A stretch of DNA of 64,000 bases from Deltaproteobacteria bacterium (GCA_021817345.1 JAKAVC010000134.1:4311-68310); one strand, 5' to 3'. Numbered from the stretch's first letter, positions 20,942-41,351 are shown. Notes: a model not told the origin generated them from the sequence alone. Program-made: numbers and translations.

Positions 20942-21603
20942 CGGTCTTGACCAAGGTAAACGACTGCCGGGCCCGGTACCGGGCCACGGTCGAAATCAGA
21001 AATTCTATGCGCCGCAGGCTTTTTCAAGTTTCGAACTAGCTATCGAACCACACGGCGCACGCCGGGGCAAGCGCTCGCGCCCCGACAAATCCGAACCCCG
21101 CGAAGCATCGTACGCGAGGATGCAGCGTCGAGCGCGAGCCCGAGGATCACTCTTGGCGGCAGACTCTGGGTCCCCGAGGCGAGGCCATCAGGCTCGCTCA
21201 AGGCCCGCCGCGCGTTCTCGTGCTCGCGCCTCCCATCGCCAACTCGATGTCAACGGCTGACATCAAAGCGCATTAAAGGTAGCCGTTGAACATTTGCAAC
21301 AAGATAGGAGGTCGGGGTAGGTTTCTGCACGAAACACGGCTAAAGAAGCCAAAGGAAGCTGGGATAAGGCATCCTGACCAGCGCTGCCACGCCGCTCGCC
21401 GCCGGACGCTGACAAGCCATTTTTTCAGGTTCAGATGAAGCGGGGGAAGTTGCCCTCCACTAGGGGAGTCAAGGCAACGGCCTACCACAAACAAATACGG
21501 GAACGCGGCCCCCCACCAGGCATCCGAACAGCGCTCTCGCTGCATCTGTCAAGGAATAACCTGAGGAGGCCTTCGGACCTTCTGGGAAGCACAGGGGCAA
21601 ACA

Positions 21604-22215
21604 ATGAACAAGAAAAGATTTTCGTTAGGGCCGGTTTCGCTCTTTTTGGCCGCTTCGGGACTTTGCGGCTGCTACGCCGTGCCGGGCAAGGTGAGCGGCG
21701 GCGGATGGATGCCGTCTGCCTCTGGAACGCCGGGTCAAAAGGCGGTTTTCGGCTTCAACGGAGATTCATGCGATGGGCAGACGACGGGGCACATAACCTA
21801 CGTCGATAAGAACGCCAACGTCCCAGGCCTTAGTGGCGGAATCATGATGAGGAGCACGCAGATTCTTGAGGCAAAATTGTGCAATGGATCAACCTCAGGA
21901 ACTTTTAGCGGGGCGTGCTCATTATGTAGTTCGGCGCTCGAATCGGTTGGCGTAAGCGTTGCGCCGCCCGCCACGCCGCCCCCGATGTACGCGGTATTGT
22001 TTGACTATGCTTCGATGAATCCGGCGGTTGAAACTCCGACCCCGGCACCCGAAGCGCTTGTTTGCGCGATCGACAATGGGCAGGGAGGCACCGCCACCGG
22101 TGACGATTTTGTGCTGATCGGAGCGCAGCCGCCGTTCGGCAGCAGCAGTAGTGGCTCGATCCTCAATTTCGGCTACGCGGAAGGAAACATCAAAGCCCAT
22201 AGTTGCGGGCAGTGA
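21604..22215 (+). CDS. hypothetical lipoprotein
   Basis: Lipobox LAASGLC|G. Gly/Ser/Thr-rich 203-aa protein. Locally lower GC content. Confidence 0.5.
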   Translation: MNKKRFSLGPVSLFLAASGLCGCYAVPGKVSGGGWMPSASGTPGQKAVFGFNGDSCDGQTTGHITYVDKNANVPGLSGGIMMRSTQILEAKLCNGSTSGTFSGACSLCSSALESVGVSVAPPATPPPMYAVLFDYASMNPAVETPTPAPEALVCAIDNGQGGTATGDDFVLIGAQPPFGSSSSGSILNFGYAEGNIKAHSCGQ

Positions 22216-22362
22216 ATCCCGGGCGTGGCCCCGAGGCCCGGCTGGCCTGAAACGGCGGCAATTCGTACCGAAAACACCAGTAGACGGAAACTTTCAACTC
22301 CACGAGGCTAATCGAGTTCAACCCAATCATCCTGGGCTGACCGAACGGGAGCGGCAGTCGGG

Positions 22363-22400
22363 CGGAGGTAACACGCCTCCGCCCGCGTTCTTTTCGCCGA
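22363..22400 (+). terminator. rho-independent terminator after the lipoprotein gene
   Basis: GGGCGGAGGtaacacgCCTCCGCCC followed by GCGTTCTTTT. Confidence 0.6.
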
Positions 22401-22556
22401 TTTCGCCTGAACCCGCCAGCGCGCAACGACAGACGCACGCATAACCTAGTGCGTGCCCCTGTCGCCTTCTCCGACCGCCGCAATTCCTGTCCCGTGCCGA
22501 CTTGTCGGCCACTCCCCGAAGAGGGCGTGCGATGATAACCTCATAGGTGCTCCGCC

Positions 22557-27620: not shown

Positions 27621-28538
27621 ATGATTCGTAAGCCTTTGGGCCGCGGTCTGGACGCTCTTATCGGAGGCGGCGACGGCGAGAACGCTGCTCGGCCGCGCGA
27701 GGCAGGCCCGGGCGTTACGATGACGCCGGTGGCGCAGATTCTTCCCGGTCCCTATCAGCCGCGCCAGAGTTTCAACCCCGAGCGTCTCGAGGAGTTGCGC
27801 CGCGCGATCGAGAGCCAGGGAGTAATCGAGCCGTTGATTGTCCGCCGCGCGGCAAGCGCGGCCGACGGCCCGCGCTACGAATTGATCGCCGGTGAGCGCA
27901 GGTTGCGCGCGGCCCGCGCCGCCGGACTCGAAACCGTGCCGGTCATCGTGCGCGAGCTTAACGACCGCGCGGCGCTCGAGATGTCGCTGGTCGAGAACCT
28001 CGCGCGCGAGGAACTGAACGCGGTCGAGGAAGGGCGGGCATTCGCCCGCCTGAGCCGCGAGTTCGGGCTCAGCCACGATCAGATTGCGGCGCGAATCGGC
28101 AAAAGCCGCCCGCACGTGAGCAACGCTATCCGGCTTCTTGACCTGCCCGAGCCAGTGCTCGAAATGATCGCCGAGGGAAGGCTGAGCGCGGGACAGGCCC
28201 GGCCGCTGCTTGCGCTGCCGAGCGCCGAGGCGCGCCTTTCGGCGGCCCGCAGGATAGTCGAAGGCGGAATCAACGCGCGCGGCGCGGAGGAGATCGCTTC
28301 GGCCCATCGCCGGCGCAACGGCGGCGCGTCGCACGGCGCCAGTCACGCTTCCGATCCCAATCTGAACGCGCTTGTCGAGGAGCTGCAGCGCGCGCTCAAA
28401 CGCAAGGTCCGGGTGGTTCGCCGGCGCGGAAAAACTCCTGGCCGCCTGGAGCTCGATTACTACGACGACAACGATTTGACGGCGCTGGCGGCGATGCTCG
28501 CGGCCGCCGGTTCGCGCCTCGCCTCCGCGCATCAATGA
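27621..28538 (+). CDS. parB: chromosome partitioning protein ParB/Spo0J
   Basis: ParB box GERRLRAA plus helix-turn-helix region. Confidence 0.92.
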   Translation: MIRKPLGRGLDALIGGGDGENAARPREAGPGVTMTPVAQILPGPYQPRQSFNPERLEELRRAIESQGVIEPLIVRRAASAADGPRYELIAGERRLRAARAAGLETVPVIVRELNDRAALEMSLVENLAREELNAVEEGRAFARLSREFGLSHDQIAARIGKSRPHVSNAIRLLDLPEPVLEMIAEGRLSAGQARPLLALPSAEARLSAARRIVEGGINARGAEEIASAHRRRNGGASHGASHASDPNLNALVEELQRALKRKVRVVRRRGKTPGRLELDYYDDNDLTALAAMLAAAGSRLASAHQ

Positions 28539-29125
28539 AGAACGGCCCGCCGGCGGGAGCGCGCCCCCTGCGGCGATGCGCCTGGGCGCGCGGCGATCTC
28601 GCGCTTGCCTATCATGACGAGGAATGGGGCGTTCCGCTCCACGACGACCGGCGCCTGTTCGAGTTCCTGGTGCTCGAAGGAGCGCAGGCCGGGCTTAGCT
28701 GGGACACGATTCTTCGAAAGCGCGAGAATTACCGAAAGGCGTTCGCCCGGTTCGATCCCGAGACGGTTGCGCGGTTCGACGAGCGCGCGGTGAAGCGCCT
28801 GCTCGCCGATCCGGGAATCGTCCGCAACCGTCTGAAGATACTTTCGGCGATTCGAAACGCCGAAGCGTTTCTTCGCGTGCGCGACGAGTTCGGAAGCTTC
28901 GACGCCTACATCTGGCGGTTCGTCGAGGGGAGTCCGAAGCGCAACGCGTGGCGCTCGGCGAAGCAGATTCCCGCACGCACCGCGGAGTCCGACGCGATGA
29001 GCAAGGAGCTCAAGCGCCGCGGCTTCAATTTCGTCGGCTCAACCATCTGCTACGCCTTCATGCAGGCGGTCGGGATGGTGAACGATCACCTGGTGGGCTG
29101 CTTCCGCTACCGCGAGATTCGCTGA
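28535..29125 (+). CDS. tag: DNA-3-methyladenine glycosylase I
   Basis: Tag family signature (CAWA...DEEWGVP...LEGAQAGLSWDTIL). ATGA overlap with the parB stop. Confidence 0.9.
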   Translation: MKNGPPAGARPLRRCAWARGDLALAYHDEEWGVPLHDDRRLFEFLVLEGAQAGLSWDTILRKRENYRKAFARFDPETVARFDERAVKRLLADPGIVRNRLKILSAIRNAEAFLRVRDEFGSFDAYIWRFVEGSPKRNAWRSAKQIPARTAESDAMSKELKRRGFNFVGSTICYAFMQAVGMVNDHLVGCFRYREIR

Positions 29126-29213
29126 TCGGAGCATGCCAAACGGGGTAGGCTGTGGACCTCGTTCTATCGAGTCGATAAGAGTCCCTAGTTCGCGCCAGCG
29201 CCTCGCCGCTCTT

Positions 29214-31754
29214 TCATTCCTTCGCTACCACGGTATCGTAGAGCCCATAGTGGATTAGGCCCTCGTGGCTTTCGATTCCCGTATAGCGTAGTGACGCGTC
29301 TTCGTAGCGGCGAAAGGCAAAGACAGCCTGGTTCATTTGTTCGGTGTTGAAGACCTTCAGCTGTACGAGCAAATGGAAGTCGTTCACCGTCAGGCCGGTG
29401 ACGGCTAGAAACAAGTCCGGTTCGAGCTTGGTTATGACGTCCTGCAGCGTATTCTCGCGGAAGTCGGTCAGGTACATGAACGCGGGAATCCGAGTGGCAA
29501 ACTTGATCAGCTTCTCCTGCGCGAGCTTCCGCTTGGACTTGTACTCCTTCTCCTCCTCGGTGAGCTGTTTCTTCTCCTTCTCCGTAAGATCGTGGTCCCT
29601 GGCCTTGCTCTTGAGTTCCTTCACCTTCTCGCTCTTGTTGATAATGGTCTCGATGATGTTGTCGCCGAGCGCGCGCCAGCCCTCAATTCGCTCAACGGCG
29701 GCCATCGCCTCGGGGTTGTCCATGATGCGGCGCAGAGTGTCGTTATCTACGTTCACGAGCAGGGCGCTCTCCCACTTGCGTGCCAGCAGCGTGGCTGAGG
29801 TGCCCGCCATCGCGATGTCGAGAATGCCGCCCGCGTCGATCTGCGTCATATTCGCGCCGTCGTAGGCCAGCACGGGCAGAAACGAAACGAGGTCCTTGAC
29901 CGCGTTCTCCGGGTTCTGTTCGTTTGGCGACAGGCCGATCCCATAATCGGAGATCTGCCGCAGCGCGCGCGTGGGCGCGAAGTCAAACACGAAGCAGATA
30001 GGCTTGAGGATCTCCTCCTCGTTCGGGTTGTCGCCGTTGGGGTTCTTGATCGACCACGGCGACTGCACGCGGAACGCTGCCTGAAAGTACGTCTCCGGCG
30101 ACTTGAGGTTGCGTAGCATCAGAATGGATGACCACTGTGGCACCGTCACGCCGGTGGCGAGCTTGCCGCACGAGAGCGTGATGCTCTTGGTCTCGAAACC
30201 GCTTCCGATGGCCTTGCGCACGGGTGGTAATGCCTCCAGTCCAATTCCCGCCGAGGCGCCAGCGGCGACGACCACTTCGTAGTCGTGCCAGAAAGTGTTG
30301 TGCTTCTCGGCCAGCAGGTTTGACATCGCGTGGCAGGCCGCGACGTTGGGGAGGAACCAGAACGAGTGCTGCAGGTACGGCAGCAGGCGGACATCCGAAT
30401 ACGGAAACGGCGGCCGCGTGCCCGTCTTCAGATGCTCCATCACTTGGGGCGTGTACCCACCGCGGATGATGTCTAGCCACTTCTGCACGTCGCTCTTATG
30501 TTTGAATTGCGCTTTGGCGCCCCTGCCTGATGCCTCGAAGAACTCGTTGAGATCAAACTCGTCGAACTCCCCGGCGCTCGCGATTGCCAGCAGCTCGTCC
30601 GGCATCTGGTAAGTCAGCAACCGCATCTGCGGCAGCGCACCATAAGGATTCCACTTGCCGGGCTTCTTCGCGGCGAATTCCTGCTTGGCGCGCTGTTCGT
30701 CGGTGTAGGTCCAGTTGAAGATCTGTTCTTCGATGAATTCGCCCGTGGCCAGCGCTCTGAACGGTGTGCCCGAGAGGTAGAGATATGCCTTGGTCGTGAT
30801 GGGCAGAAAATCGGTCTCCTTCTCCGAAAGAACGCTGAGGTCTTCGTTCACATCCTCCAGCCCGGCCGCGTATTCAATATTGGCCTCTTTCTTTGCAACG
30901 GCCTCTTCTTCGCCTTCAAACAGTTCTTTGGCGGTCTCTCGCCAGGCGCCGAAATGGTATTCATCAAACACCACCAGGTCCCAGTTTACCGTGTGCAACC
31001 ATTCGTTCTTGGATTTGATATTTCCCGCCGCATCACGACCAAGGAGGTCCTGAAATGAGCCGAAGTACACAACCGGTTTGTGGCCGTCGATTTTGGTGGG
31101 ATCGCTGCCCGAGTTGCGCGAGAGGTACTGCCAGCCATCGAAGTCCACGTGATTTTCGATATCCGACTGCCACGCATCCTCGACGGCAGGCTTGAACGTG
31201 ACCACAAGGACGCGTTTGGCGCCAAGCTTCTTTGCTAGCTGGTAGGTGGTGAAGGTCTTTCCGAAGCGCATCTTCGCGTTCCAGAGGAAGCGCGGGACGG
31301 CGTGCATATCCTCCTTCCAAATCGAGTGGAAGTACGCGTGCGTCTTGTTTACAGCCTCCGCTTGCTCGCGGCGCATCGCGAATGTCTCGTGATGCGTACC
31401 GGTGAACCGCTGGCCGGTGCGCAACTCGGTGAGCACGGTCTTCACGTCCTTGACCGTGCAGCGCATCCACTCTAGCTCGCCGCTCTCAAAGCCCTTCTTA
31501 ATCAGGGCCGCGCGCACTTCGTAGTCAGTGAAGATGCTGCCGTCGTTGCGCTCAGCTCGTTCGTCCAGCTCGATCCTATAATTCTTGATGGCGGCGGTTT
31601 TGAGCTGCTCGGCTACGCGCTGCTTCACGTCGCGCGTGGTCTGGCCGACCTTGAGGAGGCCCGCGTGTGCGTCGTCGGCAATGGAGTAAGCGTAGATCCG
31701 CGGCCGGGCTTCCGGCTTGGGCGCAAGGATCTCCTCGATGGTCTTACTCATCAT
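29214..31754 (-). CDS. fusion protein with an N-terminal GIY-YIG (T5orf172-like) nuclease domain and an SF2 DExH helicase/ATPase; putative restriction/effector subunit of an R-M-like defence system
   Basis: N-terminal RIYAYSIADDAHAGLLKVGQTTRDVKQRVAEQ (GIY...YIG...R...E pattern). Helicase motifs: I (KMRFGKTFT), II (LVVFDEYHFGAW), III (LYLSGTPFRA) and VI (FQAAFRVQS). About 250-aa C-terminal domain of unknown function. Lower GC and translationally coupled to the upstream MTase. Confidence 0.7.
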   Translation of the reverse strand: MMSKTIEEILAPKPEARPRIYAYSIADDAHAGLLKVGQTTRDVKQRVAEQLKTAAIKNYRIELDERAERNDGSIFTDYEVRAALIKKGFESGELEWMRCTVKDVKTVLTELRTGQRFTGTHHETFAMRREQAEAVNKTHAYFHSIWKEDMHAVPRFLWNAKMRFGKTFTTYQLAKKLGAKRVLVVTFKPAVEDAWQSDIENHVDFDGWQYLSRNSGSDPTKIDGHKPVVYFGSFQDLLGRDAAGNIKSKNEWLHTVNWDLVVFDEYHFGAWRETAKELFEGEEEAVAKKEANIEYAAGLEDVNEDLSVLSEKETDFLPITTKAYLYLSGTPFRALATGEFIEEQIFNWTYTDEQRAKQEFAAKKPGKWNPYGALPQMRLLTYQMPDELLAIASAGEFDEFDLNEFFEASGRGAKAQFKHKSDVQKWLDIIRGGYTPQVMEHLKTGTRPPFPYSDVRLLPYLQHSFWFLPNVAACHAMSNLLAEKHNTFWHDYEVVVAAGASAGIGLEALPPVRKAIGSGFETKSITLSCGKLATGVTVPQWSSILMLRNLKSPETYFQAAFRVQSPWSIKNPNGDNPNEEEILKPICFVFDFAPTRALRQISDYGIGLSPNEQNPENAVKDLVSFLPVLAYDGANMTQIDAGGILDIAMAGTSATLLARKWESALLVNVDNDTLRRIMDNPEAMAAVERIEGWRALGDNIIETIINKSEKVKELKSKARDHDLTEKEKKQLTEEEKEYKSKRKLAQEKLIKFATRIPAFMYLTDFRENTLQDVITKLEPDLFLAVTGLTVNDFHLLVQLKVFNTEQMNQAVFAFRRYEDASLRYTGIESHEGLIHYGLYDTVVAKE

Positions 31755-33363
31755 CTACTTCCATCGGCCGAATCAACTTCTCGATGTAGGCGATCTCGTC
31801 ATTCGTAAGCCCGTACTTCGCGTAAAGCTTCTTGTCCGTCCACGCCCTCGAAAAGTCTTGGAGCGGTACGAACGAGTAGGCCGAGCGTGAGAGGTCCTGC
31901 GCAGATGACCGCGCAGCAATGAGAAACCGGAAGAATCTCGTGACAACATACGAAAAACAGTTCCGCGCTTCCGTCTCAGTGTCGTAAGCGCCCAGCAGTA
32001 TGTATGTCTCGGTCACAACAGATCCGGGTGGGATGACACCGGACAGTGAGAGCACACGCCGCTGACCGTTCCTGTCAACCTGACCAGCGTGCTCTGATGA
32101 CGACTTGGACGTGAAGACCTTCCACTTATCAACTAGATCCCGGCCGACTGTTACTTCGGATCTGGACGTCCAAGCGCGCCCTCCATTTTGGAGGACAAGA
32201 ATGTCGTGCTTTGATGATCTCTTCTCAGATCCTCGAAAGAAGGTGCGCAATCCAAATGGCTTCTGCGAACTGACCTGCCTTTCGAAGCGCTTCGCCTCGG
32301 GGAGGCACAGTGACGTTGAGCCGGTCTCTACTGCCGTCACTTTCCGGAGAATTGAAAGCGCACGGCTGCTTCGAATGAATACTTCAGCACCTTCTTCTAG
32401 GAGCGGACGCACGGTTTCTGACGATTCTGACCCGTTCTCAAATTCAACTATGCGGCAATCTCCAGGATTGTCTCTGTCCCACAGGAAGTAGCAAACACCG
32501 CCTGCAACATCCACGCTTGGGAAAACCTGCCGGCTGTCCGGGTAGTCAACGAGCTTTCTAATCCGGTTGTCGGTAAGCATCGACTGGCGGAACTCGTCCA
32601 GGCCGCGGCCACCAAAGAGCCAGCGAGACGGGATAACCATCGTCAAGAAGCGCGGCTCAAGCGCCTTCGCTTGCTCCACAAATCTGTTGTAGATGGGAAT
32701 GGCACTCGCGCCGAATCCGCCATCATCCAACTGATACGGTGGGTTCCCGATGATCACATCGAACTGCATATTGTCTCCAAACAGTTCGGTTACCCGAATC
32801 TTGATGTCGTTGGTGTGGATGAACGCATACGCGTGGGTTTCGAGACCTCCGCCGCGGTCAAGGGTTTTCTTGCTGGCACCGCAATACTCGCACCTGTCAT
32901 CAATCCACGCATGCTCGACGCGGTCGAACCAGACGTTGCCACTGTCGTTGGCGAAGGACTTGGCAATGGAGTGCTTGCCGTTTGCATGCTTCGAGCAATA
33001 CACACTCCGCCGCGCAAGCAGACTCGTGAGCCGAGTGATGCCGATGCCGAACACCTGCTTTGTGAGAATGTGATCGACGCGCTCTTGCAGGTCGGGAATC
33101 TCGGCCTCCAATCCCTTGGTAAGCCGGCTGGTGATTTCGCGCAGGAACACACCCGACTTTGTGCACGGATCGAGGAACCTCACTGTCTTGTCCGCCCAGA
33201 GGCTCGCGCCACTGTGGTCGGCAGCCCACGCCTCGGCCAGCGTGTCCAGCATTCGGTTCGCGAGCTCAGGCGGCGTAAACACCTCGTCGTTCGAGAGGTT
33301 CGCAATGCATGTTAGTACATCCGGGTTGCGGCCACGCAGCGCAAACGCCGCCCGAGCGCTCAT
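31744..33363 (-). CDS. gamma-class N6-adenine DNA methyltransferase (Eco57I/TaqI-like) with C-terminal target-recognition region
   Basis: Motif X (EVFTPPELANRML), motif I (FLDPCTKSGVFL) and motif IV (DVIIGNPPYQ), in that order. C-terminal KLYAKYGLTxxEIxYIE tail typical of this MTase family. Confidence 0.85.
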   Translation of the reverse strand: MSARAAFALRGRNPDVLTCIANLSNDEVFTPPELANRMLDTLAEAWAADHSGASLWADKTVRFLDPCTKSGVFLREITSRLTKGLEAEIPDLQERVDHILTKQVFGIGITRLTSLLARRSVYCSKHANGKHSIAKSFANDSGNVWFDRVEHAWIDDRCEYCGASKKTLDRGGGLETHAYAFIHTNDIKIRVTELFGDNMQFDVIIGNPPYQLDDGGFGASAIPIYNRFVEQAKALEPRFLTMVIPSRWLFGGRGLDEFRQSMLTDNRIRKLVDYPDSRQVFPSVDVAGGVCYFLWDRDNPGDCRIVEFENGSESSETVRPLLEEGAEVFIRSSRALSILRKVTAVETGSTSLCLPEAKRFERQVSSQKPFGLRTFFRGSEKRSSKHDILVLQNGGRAWTSRSEVTVGRDLVDKWKVFTSKSSSEHAGQVDRNGQRRVLSLSGVIPPGSVVTETYILLGAYDTETEARNCFSYVVTRFFRFLIAARSSAQDLSRSAYSFVPLQDFSRAWTDKKLYAKYGLTNDEIAYIEKLIRPMEVDDE

Positions 33364-34016
33364 ACGGCCTCCTTCGAGGACTCGCCAGGCGTGGCAGCGG
33401 CCAGCTCGCTCACGGTCACCGGCGGGTAGGTCTTCGTCGGCTTGAAGATCTCGTGCTTCCCGAGGTGGGCGAATAGCGAGTCCTCCGCACTGAAGGCCGA
33501 CGAAAGGGTGAGGGTGTCGAGGCGAAAATCGCGCCGCTGGAATTTGCCCTTACCAAGATAGCCCCACTCGGCAAAGGTGATCGGCTTGCCGTCGCTGGTG
33601 CGCATCGTCAAGGCGTCACCGTGAACGAGGTTCTGCGTGAGCACGTAAAAAGCGGCCCGATAGAGGTCGTCTGATTCCTTGAGGTTCAGGTAGTCAGCGA
33701 GAATCTCCAGCATATTCGCCCGGCATTCGGCGATGTTGTCCTCTAGGAGCTCGATCCCGTAGGTGCACATCAAAGCGAGAAGCGCGTAGTGCCGCCTTTC
33801 AAAGTCGGACCTCCCGAACTTGAGTTCGACGGCGGCAAGCTTGCGCTGCAGGATGCGGACGAGGAAGTTTCCACTCCCACAGGCCGGCTCCAGGAAGCGG
33901 GAGTCGATGCGCTCGGTTTCGTCCTTGACGAGGTCGAGCATCGCTTCGACCATCCAACGGGGAGTGAACACCTCCCCATGGTCGGCGACGCGTTTCTTCG
34001 ACTTGATCTGGTTCAT
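33360..34016 (-). CDS. N6-adenine MTase N-terminal-like module (motifs X, I, II, III but no NPPY). Either an accessory subunit or a truncated paralogue.
   Basis: Motifs GEVFTPRWMVEAML, FLEPACGSGNFLV, YGIEL and LVHGDAL, paralogous to the N-terminus of the adjacent 539-aa MTase. The stop overlaps the next start (GTATGA), which is preceded by GGAGG. Confidence 0.6.
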   Translation of the reverse strand: MNQIKSKKRVADHGEVFTPRWMVEAMLDLVKDETERIDSRFLEPACGSGNFLVRILQRKLAAVELKFGRSDFERRHYALLALMCTYGIELLEDNIAECRANMLEILADYLNLKESDDLYRAAFYVLTQNLVHGDALTMRTSDGKPITFAEWGYLGKGKFQRRDFRLDTLTLSSAFSAEDSLFAHLGKHEIFKPTKTYPPVTVSELAAATPGESSKEAV

Positions 34017-34359
34017 AAGTCAAATGCCCGGCTCGCGTCGGGACTGCCGATTGTCTGACGTACAGAAATAATTATCCTGCGCGCTTTGGCCCCCACAACC
34101 CTACCTCGACATCGACACCGCATGTCAGCTAGGCTTCGTTCGAGCTAGACGAACGTAGCGTACCTCGCTCGATCAATCGGACAAACTTCTTATAGTTGTG
34201 ATGATCCCGCTGCCACCTTCCGGCCACCGGGGTGTCGCCCACCGCGTTCCCCATTGGTCAGCCGCTGTCGCGCGCGCAGGACGAATTCCTGGCTCGCGAT
34301 GCTCTATTGGTTTCGCGATTGAGAGCGGCGGGCGAGGGACGTTCCAGGCGCGCATAGAT

Positions 34360-34402
34360 CGCAACCGCCTCAAGATACTTTCGGCAATTCGAAACGCCGA
34401 AA
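34360..34402 (+). repeat. diverged 43-bp direct repeat of a tag coding segment (partner at 28823-28865); right boundary of the R-M island
   Basis: 39 of 43 bp identical to the tag codons for RNRLKILSAIRNAE. The three substitutions inside those codons are synonymous. Confidence 0.7.
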
Positions 34403-34482
34403 CCTCAAGCCGGTCTCGCAGTAATTGTTAGGCTGCGATAGCTGTTGGTAAAGCCGTATGCACGGGAGGAAGAATTGGTGGC

Positions 34483-35709
34483 ATGAGCGACAATCTGCCT
34501 TTGGACGGGATGCGCGTGGTCGAGCTTGGAGAAGGGATCAGCGCCGCGTTCTGTACGCGGATGCTGGCGGGCCTCGGTGCTGAGGTATGGAAAATCGAGC
34601 AGCCGGGACGGGGCGACCGTGCCAGGCGCACACCCGACCTCGACGGCACTGAATGTGACAGTGAAGCCAATCCGCTGTTTCTGTATCTGAACACCGGCAA
34701 GAAGAGCGTCACGCTCGACCTGCACGATCAGCGCGGGCGCGATCTGCTTATGGCGCTGGTGGCGAAGGCCGACTGCGTGGTCGAAAATATGCTGCCGCGC
34801 GAATGGGCCGCGCTCGGCATGGAACCGGGGCGGCTGCGAGCCCAAAAGCCCGCTCTGGTCGTCACCTCGATAACTCCATTCGGCCAGACCGGCCCGTATC
34901 GCGATTTCGAGGCGACCAATCTGATTGAGTTTGCGATGGGCGGCCAGATGGCGTTGACGGGTGAGCCCTCGCGCGAGCCGCTGGTAAATGGCGGGTCCCA
35001 GGCCGAGTATCAGGGTGGGCTTCACGCGCTGCCCGGGACACTTGCCGCGCTGGCGCGGGCGAGCGCGACCGGCCAGGGCGAGCATCTGGATATTTCCATC
35101 GTCGAGTGCCAGGCAAGCACGCTGGAAACAGCCAATCCCGCCACGGTTGCTCTGGATTCGCCCACCTCGAATCAATGGAAAACGCGGCGCGGCAATATCA
35201 TTTCGGCCACCTGGGCGCTTTACCAGGCCGCCGACGGATACGCGGGGCTGTACTACCTGCCGCGTCAGTATCCCAAGGTGTTCGACCTGATCGGACAGCC
35301 GGAACTGCTTCAAGACGACCGATTCAAGGATCCGCAAACGGCGCTCCAGACCAATGATGAGCTGGTCGCGATAATCAGTGGATATTTCCTCGAGCATGGC
35401 AAATTCGAATTGTTCGAACGCGCGGCCAGCCAGAGGGGATGCGTGGGCTTTGTCGCCTCGATACCCGAGGCGCTGAGTTCGCCGCAGGAAGCCGCGCGCA
35501 ATTTCTTCGCCCGTGTCACCCATCCGCGCGCCGGGACCTACACTGAACCTACGGCTCCGTGGATTCTCAATGACGGGGAGCGCGACCTTCAGTTTCGCAT
35601 CGCCGGTCCGGCGCCGCTGCTCGGTGAGCATACCGCCGAGGTGCTGGCCGCGGAACTCGGCCTCCTGGACGCAAAACTCCAAGAACTCTCGCAGGCAGGG
35701 ATTATCTGA
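34483..35709 (+). CDS. family III CoA-transferase (CaiB/BaiF family)
   Basis: N-terminal LxGxRVxELG pattern and conserved catalytic Asp region (FVENM). Confidence 0.85.
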   Translation: MSDNLPLDGMRVVELGEGISAAFCTRMLAGLGAEVWKIEQPGRGDRARRTPDLDGTECDSEANPLFLYLNTGKKSVTLDLHDQRGRDLLMALVAKADCVVENMLPREWAALGMEPGRLRAQKPALVVTSITPFGQTGPYRDFEATNLIEFAMGGQMALTGEPSREPLVNGGSQAEYQGGLHALPGTLAALARASATGQGEHLDISIVECQASTLETANPATVALDSPTSNQWKTRRGNIISATWALYQAADGYAGLYYLPRQYPKVFDLIGQPELLQDDRFKDPQTALQTNDELVAIISGYFLEHGKFELFERAASQRGCVGFVASIPEALSSPQEAARNFFARVTHPRAGTYTEPTAPWILNDGERDLQFRIAGPAPLLGEHTAEVLAAELGLLDAKLQELSQAGII

Positions 35710-40184: not shown

Positions 40185-41225
40185 TTGGGCGAGCGGGAGG
40201 TCAGGGTCGTGAGGCTTTGCGTCGGAACTTCCAAGGGAATCGTCATCCTCGATCCCGCGCGCCCGAGCGTGCCCCGGATGGTGCTGGCCGACCCGTCGCC
40301 GGTATGGTGCCTGGCCCAGGACTGCCGCGACCCGAACCTGCTCTACGCTGGCTCCAACGCGATCGAGCACGGTCGCGGTGCGCTCTCGCGCTCGGACGAC
40401 GGAGGGCGGAGCTGGGTCGAGATCACGCCGCCGGCCGCGCGCGAAGAGGAAGTATGGGCGCTCGCGGCCTCGCCAACCGTGCCGGGGCGGATTTTTTTCG
40501 GCACTTCGCACGCGAGGCTGTTTCGCAGCGACGACGGCGGGCGGACGTTTCACGAGATGGCCGCGTTTCTCAAGATTCCGGGACGCGAGCGATGGACCTT
40601 TCCATCGTCGCCGCATATCCCTCACGTGCGCTCGATAGCGTTCGACCCTCACGCGCCCAACACGATTTACATGGGCGTCGAGGAGGGCGGAATCTATCGT
40701 TCGCGCGACCTTGGCGAGTCGTTCGAGGCGTTGAATGACGGCCTCTACGAGGATGTTCACACGGTCGCAATCGATCGCAAGGATCCGCGGCGGCTTTACG
40801 CGACAACCGGCGCGGGATTCCATCTCTCGGAAGACGGCGGCCAGTCGTGGCGCCGCATCAAGGAGGGCCTCGACCGCACCTACACGGTCCCGATGGTAAT
40901 CGTTGAGGAAGGCGGCGAATTCGTGCTCTACACCGCGGCCGCCGCAGGCCCGCCGCCGAGCTGGCAGGTCGCGGCGCGCGGCGCGGACTCGGCGCTCTAT
41001 CGCAGCGTCGACGGCGGGCGCTCGTTCGAGCTGCTCGAACGGCGGTTCGCGCCCGAGCGTGGGATGCCGATGCGGTTTCGCGAGAGACCGGGTGCGCCGG
41101 GAGAATTTTTCGGCGTATCGACGACCGGAACCGTCTTCCGATACGGAGCCAGCGGAAACGGATACGCCTCACATCCGCTTGTCGAAAAGCTCCCGCCAGC
41201 CTACGACCTGACCATCCTTCCCTGA
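40185..41225 (+). CDS. BNR/Asp-box repeat protein (sialidase-like beta-propeller)
   Basis: Five SxDxGxxW/F Asp-box repeats (SDDGGRSW, SDDGGRTF, SRDLGESF, SEDGGQSW, SVDGGRSF). Confidence 0.6.
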   Translation: MGEREVRVVRLCVGTSKGIVILDPARPSVPRMVLADPSPVWCLAQDCRDPNLLYAGSNAIEHGRGALSRSDDGGRSWVEITPPAAREEEVWALAASPTVPGRIFFGTSHARLFRSDDGGRTFHEMAAFLKIPGRERWTFPSSPHIPHVRSIAFDPHAPNTIYMGVEEGGIYRSRDLGESFEALNDGLYEDVHTVAIDRKDPRRLYATTGAGFHLSEDGGQSWRRIKEGLDRTYTVPMVIVEEGGEFVLYTAAAAGPPPSWQVAARGADSALYRSVDGGRSFELLERRFAPERGMPMRFRERPGAPGEFFGVSTTGTVFRYGASGNGYASHPLVEKLPPAYDLTILP

Positions 41226-41351
41226 GATAGTCGGCCAGGAATTCCGCTGCACGGGCCTGAGGGGAAAGGCGCGCTGCCACGCTCGGGGACCCCGCGCGAG
41301 TCCGAGGATTAGCGTTCGGGGGAATCCCGATGCGGCTATCCGCAGCCGTGT

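Follow-up and report, generated by a model that had tools for sequence, protein, structure and literature searches.

The 64,000-nucleotide stretch of DNA analysed here (the window) comes from a Deltaproteobacteria bacterium (GCA_021817345.1, JAKAVC010000134.1:4311-68310). In this window, three genes on the minus strand lie between tag and a family III CoA-transferase gene, and a short segment of tag is found a second time at the far side of these three genes. The features of the locus are listed below, with positions counted from the first letter of the window.

27621-28538, plus strand: parB of the native backbone (Pfam ParB_N and HTH_ParB), overlapping the tag start by 4 bp (ATGA)
28535-29125, plus strand: tag, DNA-3-methyladenine glycosylase I, intact, 196 aa, mosaic (Adenine_glyco 6e-83, TIGR00624)
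28709-28716: crossover interval within tag, from native-type to foreign-type allele, placed by informative sites
28717-29125, plus strand: foreign (D-type) 3' part of tag, about 410 bp, placed by allele comparison
28823-28865, plus strand: R, the left repeat copy, in tag (codons 97-110)
29126-29213: left edge of the insert, non-coding, 88 bp; homology to relatives stops at the tag stop
29214-31754, minus strand: T5orf172 (GIY-YIG-like) nuclease fused to an SF2 ResIII helicase, 846 aa, putative restriction subunit
31744-33363, minus strand: Eco57I-family N6-adenine methyltransferase, 539 aa, with a GNPPY motif (Pfam Eco57I 4.4e-34)
33360-34016, minus strand: N6-methyltransferase-like protein, 218 aa, N-terminal SAM-binding part (Pfam MmeI_Mtase and N6_Mtase)
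34017-34359: X343, the non-coding 343-bp part of the insert on the upstream side of the cassette operon
34360-34402, plus strand: R', a 42-bp relic of a tag allele, the final inserted bases, with an abrupt, apparently non-homologous border on each side
34400-34482: conserved spacer 5' of the CoA-transferase gene, 83 bp, where empty-site homology resumes
34483-35709, plus strand: CoA-transferase family III gene, native right flank (Pfam CoA_transf_3 9e-78)

Close relatives were reached through the list of Tag homologues and then through their contigs. In L083/L084 and in L085-L090, the site is empty, and parB, tag, a 158-bp spacer and the CoA-transferase gene follow each other without the island. 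Because these close relatives have the locus without it, positions 29126-34399 (5,274 bp) are an insertion. Its left junction (29125/29126) is the tag stop, where homology to L083, L085 and L176 ends. At the right junction, position 10667 of L083 aligns to position 34400 of the window, and position 10671 of L085 to 34401; 75 bp of the spacer (compared with L083) or 79 bp (compared with L085) are missing from the window. In addition, the GC content is 0.582 in the island and 0.632 and 0.639 in the flanks. A preliminary description of this DNA had proposed that a lower-GC operon resembling a restriction-modification (R-M) system was acquired horizontally between tag and the CoA-transferase gene, and that relatives might keep an empty junction there. 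Both the lower GC and the horizontal acquisition are borne out, and the empty junction was found.

The 846-aa protein matched T5orf172 with 26.5 bits (cut-off 20) and ResIII with 27.6 bits (cut-off 22.5) in Pfam, and its residues 155-775 matched the PADLOC profile REase_MTase_IIG (5e-33). Its relatives at 89-92% amino acid identity are found in many phyla, with copies on plasmids too. The 539-aa methyltransferase matched PADLOC MTase_II (4.8e-44) as well as the IIG profile. The middle part of its gene (about 31850-32450) is variable across 80 loci, and this part is predicted to determine target recognition. The 218-aa protein is the product of a conserved third cassette gene, with 78-94% amino acid identity in 80 metagenome loci, and its plasmid counterpart is annotated as 'N-6 DNA methylase'. 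Thus, the cassette has an N6-adenine methyltransferase with SAM-binding and NPPY motifs and a partner with a nuclease domain and an ATP-dependent motor, and we predict from these domains that the three genes form a split Type IIG / ISP-like R-M system. Like Type IIG / Type ISP-like and Type III-like systems, it combines an SF2 helicase-type motor with a nuclease domain and has an Eco57I-family gamma-N6-adenine methyltransferase with a variable recognition region. Furthermore, the split proteins align end-to-end with the fused 1359-aa REase_MTase_IIG profile (PDLC03626). However, the nuclease is N-terminal and T5orf172/GIY-YIG-like instead of PD-(D/E)xK, and there are three genes, including the one for the extra 218-aa methyltransferase-like protein. 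PDB sequence searches with both large cassette proteins gave no match.

Copies of the cassette in different phyla share about 90% identity. They are found on plasmids and in many unrelated contexts, and the homology stops at the cassette ORFs. In none of the 80 metagenome loci, nor in L177, was it next to tag or accompanied by R'. The preliminary description had suggested a search for the same cassette in tag elsewhere; no such association appeared in 80 cassette copies or 93 tag loci. X343 is present only in the window, L001 and L002, and other copies of the cassette are without it. The two ORFs of X343 had no Pfam match, self-BLAST and blastx of X343 gave no match, and no further remnant of tag or parB was detected in it. 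Scans of viral contigs with the R' and X343 patterns were negative. Meanwhile, the island including X343 had no Rfam match and no terminal inverted repeats, and a promoter and terminator scan of it was empty.

The tag gene itself is mosaic. It is of native type up to position 28708 and is a foreign allele from 28717 to the stop. At sites that are informative between L176, which carries the sole other D-type tag found, and the sister lineage L083, upstream of the interval 28709-28716 17 are native and 1 is foreign, and downstream of it 11 are native and 31 foreign (Fisher P = 1.3e-6; permutation P < 5e-5). The 28717-29125 part shares about 94% identity with the L176 tag versus 89% with that of L083, and the L176 allele is 92% identical to the window tag overall. 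In addition, the identity between the window and L083 at fourfold sites is 0.79 in tag and 0.91-0.955 in gidB, parA, parB and both CoA-transferase genes (P = 6e-5), that is, a divergence of 21% in tag versus 7% in the flanking genes. At the nucleotide level, parB is 98% identical to that of L083. When changes specific to the window (W), to L083 (N) and to L085 (O) were counted, tag 28709-29125 gave a star-like 20/20/21 and parB a sister-like 5/11/68 (P = 1.7e-8). The backbone of L176 differs from that of the window: a BrnT/CopG toxin-antitoxin pair comes immediately behind the tag stop, and no CoA-transferase gene is visible downstream. An exact look-up of the window Tag protein returned no match. 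Outside the clade, the nearest Tag proteins among the matches listed came from Acidobacteriota MAGs, at about 70-74% amino acid identity, and 80 listed tag loci of relatives at 74% amino acid identity or less served as controls.

The repeat copies R (28823-28865) and R' (34360-34402) are identical at 39 of 43 positions. Both encode RNRLKILSAIRNAE; R spans tag codons 97-110 plus one base. Three of the differences are internal (CGT/CGC, CTG/CTC and GCG/GCA), all at third codon positions and synonymous, and the fourth is base 43, beyond the 14 shared codons. No homology extends to the left or right of either copy. A degenerate 42-mer with up to 3 mismatches found two sites in the 64 kb, namely R and R', with 0.00 expected in 100 shuffles, and chance similarity was rejected on this count. 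The repeat, its synonymous substitutions and the view of the right copy as a relic of a second tag-like coding sequence, not a random match, all stood as the preliminary description had put them; the second sequence was a tag allele from the same clade that had once been functional. The repeats were also said to bracket the island, and this does not hold. The insert ends in R', which makes up its final 41-42 bp up to the right junction, whereas R is placed within tag, 261 bp short of the left junction. The borders between X343 and R' and between R' and the spacer are abrupt, with an ambiguous overlap of 1-3 bp at 34400-34402. Among the 80 tag loci listed, the segment matching R is conserved as protein, and its DNA is identical at no more than 34 of 42 positions. 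A second partial tag copy was found in 1 of 94 tag loci, namely L001, whose strain is also that of the window, and in none of the other 93. R in the window also shows a two-site reversion relative to L001.

R' differs from the L083 allele, taken as the native-type proxy from the sister lineage, at 2 of 41 positions, and from the D-type proxies L001 and L176 at 5 of 42. R' would thus be the remnant of a partial second tag copy, most likely the displaced native one. This assignment to the native allele depends on three sites in 42 bp, of which two are ancestral states and one is a third codon position prone to homoplasy. It had been proposed that the island brought a fragment of the donor's tag with it. 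Tag homology did mediate the insertion, and donor tag sequence did come with the island. However, demonstrable donor tag sequence amounts to the 3' 410 bp or so of the intact tag and does not include the 43-bp relic, which is as close or closer to the native type than to the donor type.

We favour, with modest confidence, an import of the cassette on DNA of a lineage D that was anchored in tag, joined at its far end without homology and later trimmed by a deletion that left R'. The three-gene R-M cassette would have arrived on DNA of this related but distinct lineage, where it would already have stood downstream of lineage D's own tag. Through a RecA-type crossover at 28709-28716, the D allele would have taken the place of the native tag over its 3' two-thirds, and the heterologous DNA linked to it (88 bp, the cassette and 343 bp) would have come along. 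The insert's other end would then have been joined without homology, either by homology-facilitated illegitimate recombination (HFIR) or by a single crossover of a circularised fragment, and either route would leave part of the anchor gene duplicated on the downstream side of the insert. Later, a deletion of some 337 bp would have taken most of this redundant copy together with the 75-79 bp of native spacer, so that only the 42-bp R' was left, next to the spacer and 83 bp away from the CoA-transferase gene downstream.

The donor-type allele in tag, with its mapped crossover, is contiguous with the heterologous insert; at the other end recipient DNA was lost (75-79 bp of spacer) and a partial duplicate of the anchor is present (42 bp). 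In experiments, anchor-mediated integration gives insertion together with deletion, and circularised fragments give anchor duplications of 109-950 bp (PMC3240628). HFIR has also been invoked to explain displaced 3' gene remnants in Rhs and T6SS loci (PMC5361080). The first 12 bp after the tag stop match the L083 spacer at 11 positions (shuffle P = 0.02). These bases may be a remnant of native spacer, and the match hints at a donor with a similar spacer. No lineage D donor with the cassette turned up among the relatives compared, nor did the contigs of CoA-transferase homologues (L178-L181), which had no tag upstream, reveal one. Two events, integration and then deletion, are needed for both borders of R', and this was counted against the anchored import. 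Two other models were rejected: a simple Campbell model with R as the crossover, since the crossover lies upstream of the start of R', and a full tandem tag copy that decayed leaving other remnants, since none were detected in X343.

A second explanation, which we regard as possible and a good deal less probable than the anchored import, is that the D-type 3' part of tag, the cassette, X343, R' and part of the spacer were assembled in the donor and then entered by double homologous recombination. The crossovers would lie in tag and in the spacer or the start of the CoA-transferase gene, and R' would be donor-borne, in line with the preliminary description, with an origin further back. Double recombination is orders of magnitude commoner than HFIR (PMC3240628, PMC5361080). 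In addition, the 83-bp spacer is only 87% identical to that of L083, with a mild excess of window-specific over L083-specific changes (W = 7, N = 3). From this excess, the right crossover could be homologous and the junction of R' with the spacer could already have existed in the donor. The possible native-like spacer remnant directly after the tag stop also fits with it. However, at ten spacer sites (O = 10) the window and L083 still agree against L085, a pattern unlike the star-like one of tag. The CoA-transferase gene is 97% identical to that of L083 at the nucleotide level, and its three-taxon counts are native-like from 34483, that is, from its first codons. Furthermore, the D-type tag of L176 sits in a different backbone with no CoA-transferase gene visible downstream, R' is farther from the D-type alleles than from the native type, and the origin of R' is only postponed and left unexplained.

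It is improbable, in our opinion, that R' is filler DNA, a short single-stranded piece of tag caught at an illegitimate right junction, with no longer duplication at any time. The piece would have come from the cell's own genome or from a relative and been captured during break repair or replication. This would suit the 42-bp length of R', its abrupt borders with 1-3 bp of junction overlap and the lack of any other tag or parB remnant in X343. In work of Harms and colleagues from 2016, the ectopic segments inserted by such events (short-patch double illegitimate recombination) in Acinetobacter were reportedly between a few and about 80 nt long. However, they are rare, and a source 5.5 kb away, in the recombination anchor itself, is better explained by the anchor. 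For the present data, this explanation makes the same prediction as duplication followed by deletion.

An R-M cassette lies directly downstream of tag in the window and a BrnT/BrnA toxin-antitoxin pair lies there in L176. In this clade, the spot might be a dedicated and recurrent cargo site or defence hotspot with exchange through tag recombination, in which R and R' are still an active substrate. We hold this to be rather unlikely. If it were true, the two-site reversion in R relative to L001 would be a gene-conversion trace, and the mechanism would be reproducible and anchored in tag, not a one-off accident.

The least probable explanation, which we consider very doubtful, is att-type insertion, which the preliminary description had named beside homology-mediated insertion. 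R and R' would then be the attL and attR cores of an element that targeted tag, supplied it with a new 3' end and later lost its integrase. The low-GC island does have direct repeats of a target-gene segment on both sides, and the 3' end of tag beyond R is foreign. However, the foreign tract begins 107 bp upstream of R, at the crossover interval and not at R, and the native 3' half of tag is absent after R'. The repeats do not stand at both island-chromosome junctions (the left copy is at 28823-28865, the junction at 29125/29126). Recombination between R and R' would delete tag codons 111-196 and fuse codon 110 to ACCTCAAGCC in the spacer; it does not restore the empty site of L083/L085, where the full-length tag and the 158-bp spacer are kept. 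Moreover, no recurrence of the element at this target was seen in other genomes: the 80 cassette relatives all lie away from tag and lack R', and, the same-strain L001 apart, a second partial tag copy is absent from the 93 other tag loci. No recombinase gene is found in or beside the island, in agreement with the earlier remark that no integrase remains: by Pfam, PADLOC and NCBIfam the island holds the three R-M genes only, and the genes called between gidA and tpiA include no integrase or transposase family.

The nearest experimental likeness is HFIR and one-sided homology (de Vries & Wackernagel 2002; Prudhomme et al. 2002; Meier & Wackernagel 2003; Amarir-Bouhram et al. 2011, PMC3240628). 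There too, one end recombines homologously within an anchor gene, as mapped here in tag, recipient DNA is lost at the junction (here 75-79 bp of spacer), and a partial anchor duplicate can remain; the heterologous tail, which HFIR joins without homology, would have its counterpart here at the far end of the insert. However, HFIR was seen experimentally, whereas our case comes from comparative genomics in an uncultured lineage, with an insert of 5.3 kb against about 1 kb in typical experimental products, and would need a second deletion step.

The effector-immunity loci of Rhs, CDI and T6SS systems (Jackson et al. 2009; Kirchberger et al. 2017, PMC5361080) are similar in that the conserved upstream part is the anchor, a new 3' part arrives with linked cargo, and displaced 3' remnants are moved downstream of the new cargo as direct repeats. 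They differ in that their anchor is a polymorphic toxin, whereas tag is a housekeeping repair gene whose new 3' part comes from an orthologous allele of unchanged function. In addition, there is no sign of arrays or repeated displacement here, and the remnant is 42 bp long and non-functional. With islands flanked by att sites, which tyrosine or serine recombinases place at the ends of tRNA or protein genes, the locus shares a lower-GC island beside a conserved gene that stays intact, and direct repeats of a segment of the adjoining gene. However, here there is no integrase, the repeats are not positioned at both boundaries, and the crossover is elsewhere in the gene.

Taken together, the locus is a clear instance of horizontal gene transfer, and an ordinary one; R' is a junction scar, not an attachment site. 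The repeats are not att sites because the left copy is off the junction and recombination between R and R' would truncate tag. Where gene-fragment repeats are found around an island, the true junctions should be mapped in empty-site relatives before att sites are called. The locus raises no new mechanistic question, and its practical value lies mainly in annotation and in the turnover of defence islands in uncultured bacteria. It is a natural example of a defence cassette without an integrase that enters the chromosome through a housekeeping-gene anchor and leaves a mosaic gene and a short scar at the far junction.

The island, a three-gene unit resembling a restriction-modification (R-M) system, lies on the minus strand, downstream of plus-strand gidB, parA, parB and tag (the DNA-3-methyladenine glycosylase I gene), with parB and tag overlapping at ATGA. 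It is followed by two family-III CoA-transferase genes on the plus strand.

Features of the tag-island region
28535-29125, plus strand: tag
28823-28865, in frame in tag: R, the left repeat copy, codons 97-110, RNRLKILSAIRNAE
Minus strand, gene 1: 846-aa protein combining an N-terminal T5orf172 (GIY-YIG-like) domain with a ResIII SF2 helicase domain
31744-33363, minus strand, gene 2: 539-aa N6-adenine methyltransferase of the Eco57I family, containing a GNPPY motif
33360-34016, minus strand, gene 3: 218-aa methyltransferase-like protein
34017-34359: X343, a 343-bp segment
34360-34402: R', the right repeat copy, identical to R at 39 of 43 positions and giving the same 14 residues on translation

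The GC content of the island, at 0.582, is lower than that of the flanks (0.632 and 0.639), as the preliminary description of a lower-GC R-M-like operon had it. In PADLOC, the 846-aa and 539-aa proteins align one after the other along a single fused Type IIG profile. The cargo resembles split Type IIG/ISP-like or Type III-like R-M systems, the nuclease here being GIY-YIG-type, and its activity is putative. In addition, the N-terminal SAM-binding-like methyltransferase regions of the 218-aa and 539-aa proteins match the same part of IIG profiles, and in several related loci, among them L103, L111, L161, and L173, the genes for these two proteins lie about 1.7 kb apart, with extra DNA between them. 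The 218-aa protein may be a second methyltransferase subunit, a regulator, or a relic.

The island is shared with a contig of the same strain (L001; GCA_027318025.1, DAHVPY010000058.1), which is 99.96% identical to the window. Further contigs were reached via Tag homologues with 90% and 87% amino acid identity. In the sister lineage (L083/L084, 93-97% DNA identity to the window) and the next relatives (L085-L090, 87-91%), parB-tag is followed by 158-159 bp and the same two CoA-transferase genes, and the island is absent. The empty tag-CoA-transferase junction, proposed earlier as a check, was therefore found in both sets. Homology to the relatives is lost exactly at the tag stop (29125) and regained at 34400 (L083) or 34401 (L085). 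Thus, the insertion comprises 29126-34399 (5,274 bp) and takes the place of 75-79 bp of spacer. R' forms the final 41-42 bp of the inserted DNA. In addition, the 12 bp after the tag stop (29126-29137, TCGGAGCATGCC) match L083 10636-10647, 45 bp into the L083 spacer, at 11 of 12 positions (shuffle P = 0.02). If this match is real, about 44 bp were lost after the stop in the window lineage or the donor, and the foreign DNA begins near 29138, not 29126. Elsewhere, L083 carries a UbiE-type methyltransferase gene absent from the window (L083 17489-18261; window 41221-41293) and two additional genes, one DUF1573, between rnpA and mnmE (L083 1393-3965; window 21238-22496).

The repeat pair exists as first described. 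Three internal differences between R and R' are all third-position synonymous, and the fourth, at base 43, is outside the shared codons. A degenerate 42-mer with three mismatches allowed found only R and R' in the 64-kb window and nothing in 100 shuffles. No homology extends beyond the segments on either side. The motif is conserved at the protein level across Tag proteins generally. At the DNA level, the best identity to either copy among the tags listed from other taxa (at least 80) was 34/42; R' therefore derives from a tag allele of the same narrow clade.

The tag gene itself is mosaic. Fourfold-degenerate identity between the window and L083 is 91-95.5% in gidB, parA, parB, and both CoA-transferase genes, but 79.4% in tag (20/97 differences vs 69/958 in the flanking genes, P = 6e-5). 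In a three-taxon comparison of the window, L083, and L085, unique sites in parB numbered 5, 11, and 68, respectively, making the window and L083 sisters, whereas tag 28709-29125 gave a star-like 20, 20, and 21 (P = 1.7e-8). The sole other genome fragment with this tag allele (D-type, after D, the lineage put forward as donor) is L176, a 1.6-kb contig whose tag is 92% identical to that of the window, on a different backbone (unalignable parB end, 70-bp parB-tag spacer). Where L176 and L083 differ, the window carries the L083 state at 17 of 18 sites in 28582-28708 and the L176 state at 31 of 42 from 28717, the exceptions being mostly L176-private changes. The breakpoint lies at 28709-28716 (Fisher P = 1.3e-6; permutation P < 5e-5). 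This switch indicates that the 3' ~410 bp of tag came with the island from a third lineage, in agreement with the earlier proposal that donor tag sequence was brought in.

Furthermore, codons 5-12 of tag (28549-28568) form a window-specific patch (e.g., CCCC vs GAGG/AAGG in L083, L085, and L091). Native-type sequence fills the 140 bp between this patch and the main foreign tract, and the patch may stem either from a further small recombination event or from hypervariability of the N-terminus. L176 has a BrnT toxin/CopG-family antitoxin pair starting 28 bp past the tag stop (768-1270; ENA ERZ27237452 k141_1340859). In L091 and L092, tag is followed by a gene for a PMT-family glycosyltransferase, and both lack the CoA-transferase pair. 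Thus, the site just downstream of tag is a variable cargo space in this clade.

The origin of R' was examined by counting mismatches over 42 bp.

Mismatches between R' and tag alleles
L083/L084 (native-type proxy): 3 (2 within bp 1-41)
Window R: 3
L091: 4
L001 (D-type): 5
L176 (D-type): 5
L085: 5

R' and L083 have three states in common against the D-type alleles, and the reverse direction gives none or one. The two private states of R' are synonymous third positions, both also seen in L091. R' is consistent with a tag allele of the clade that was once functional, and descent of the two copies from two functional orthologous alleles accounts for the exclusively synonymous differences noted earlier; the proposed relic of a second tag-like coding sequence is upheld. 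Most simply, R' may be the native allele displaced by the import, a point that 42 bp is too short to settle. Meanwhile, of the eight positions at which the window and L001 differ, three fall within 15 bp in or beside R (28852, 28855, and 28866; L001 4370, 4373, and 4384). At two of them the window has the R' and native-type state (T, A) and L001 the L176 D-type state (C, C). This cluster could reflect conversion of a short stretch of R by R', a patch of allelic sequence from a co-occurring strain, or a consensus artefact, all compared genomes being metagenome assemblies in which single-site variants, such as those between the window and L001, could stem from a chimeric consensus.

The CoA-transferase gene to the right of the insert shows the native type from its beginning (34483-34700; sites unique to the window, L083, and L085 number 4, 6, and 20, respectively). 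In the 83-bp spacer, 10 sites join the window with L083, and there are seven window-specific vs three L083-specific changes, a signal in both directions. X343 gave no relative, tag/parB remnant, RNA family, promoter-like site, or protein-family match. A 77-aa ORF with a GTG start (34198-34431) starts within X343, crosses R' in the same frame as tag, and terminates 29 bp past R'; it has no family match, no gene is called there in L001, and it is probably a fortuitous product of the junction.

Relatives of the 846-aa protein (89-92% amino acid identity) occur in Bradyrhizobium cytisi and in MAGs labelled Gemmatimonadota, Chloroflexi, Nitrospira, Binataceae, Steroidobacteraceae, and Caldilineaceae. 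Copies with 72-84% identity are on small plasmids of Sphingopyxis, Rhizobium, Burkholderia, Deinococcus, and Corynebacterium, one having the same three genes beside toxin-antitoxin and further defence-like genes. In 80 metagenome cassette loci, the DNA match to the window stops in every case at the ORF limits (~29200-29214 and 34016), and the flanks are mutually unrelated, bar a leader of about 50 bp in some. The variable part is the methyltransferase middle (~31850-32450), presumably the target-recognition domain. The cassette was not found beside tag in these loci: tag, R', or X343 was near it in 0 of the 80. Thus, R' is no part of the mobile cassette, and X343 and R' are lineage-specific. 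The cross-phylum conservation of the cassette (29214-34016; L096-L175, L177, and L182) is unusually high, and the unit is widely spread although it has no mobility genes of its own.

The best reading of these sequence comparisons is that the island was acquired by anchor-mediated import via tag, with D as the donor suggested by the tag allele. Homologous recombination would have occurred inside tag at 28709-28716, and the far end of the heterologous tail would have been joined without homology, so that part of tag would have been present a second time downstream of the insert. The loss of ~337 bp in a subsequent deletion could have cut this copy to R' and removed 75-79 bp of the spacer. In published experiments, homology-facilitated illegitimate recombination (HFIR) couples insertion to deletion with junction microhomology of 0-10 bp, and circularised fragments that integrate by a single crossover leave a 109-950 bp duplication of the anchor (PMC3240628); these results support both routes. 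Displaced 3' gene remnants downstream of new modules in T6SS and Rhs loci have been explained likewise (PMC5361080). A strict Campbell-type event in which R was the crossover site is excluded, the crossover lying upstream of the R' start. It is possible, though less likely, that the whole block, including the R'-spacer junction, was made in the donor and then moved by double homologous recombination. That R' is captured filler or short-patch DNA is more doubtful still. Att-type integration, suggested by the preliminary description, is very improbable: the right copy does sit at its junction, but R lies within conserved tag, 261 bp upstream of the left junction, so the island is not bracketed in the att sense; the crossover maps 107 bp upstream of R, not to R itself; R x R' recombination is predicted to delete tag codons 111-196 without regenerating the empty site; and, as noted before, there is no integrase, nor a transposase, among the genes from gidA to tpiA.

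In the way it works, the tag-island case is comparable to HFIR, or one-sided-homology acquisition, and to C-terminal displacement loci. It does not belong to the att-flanked integrative islands, because none of four defining features tested was found. Phenomena of this kind are already known, and the present locus adds a new case that is well resolved. For specialists it is no surprise; it is a useful example of how gene-fragment repeats can mislead.
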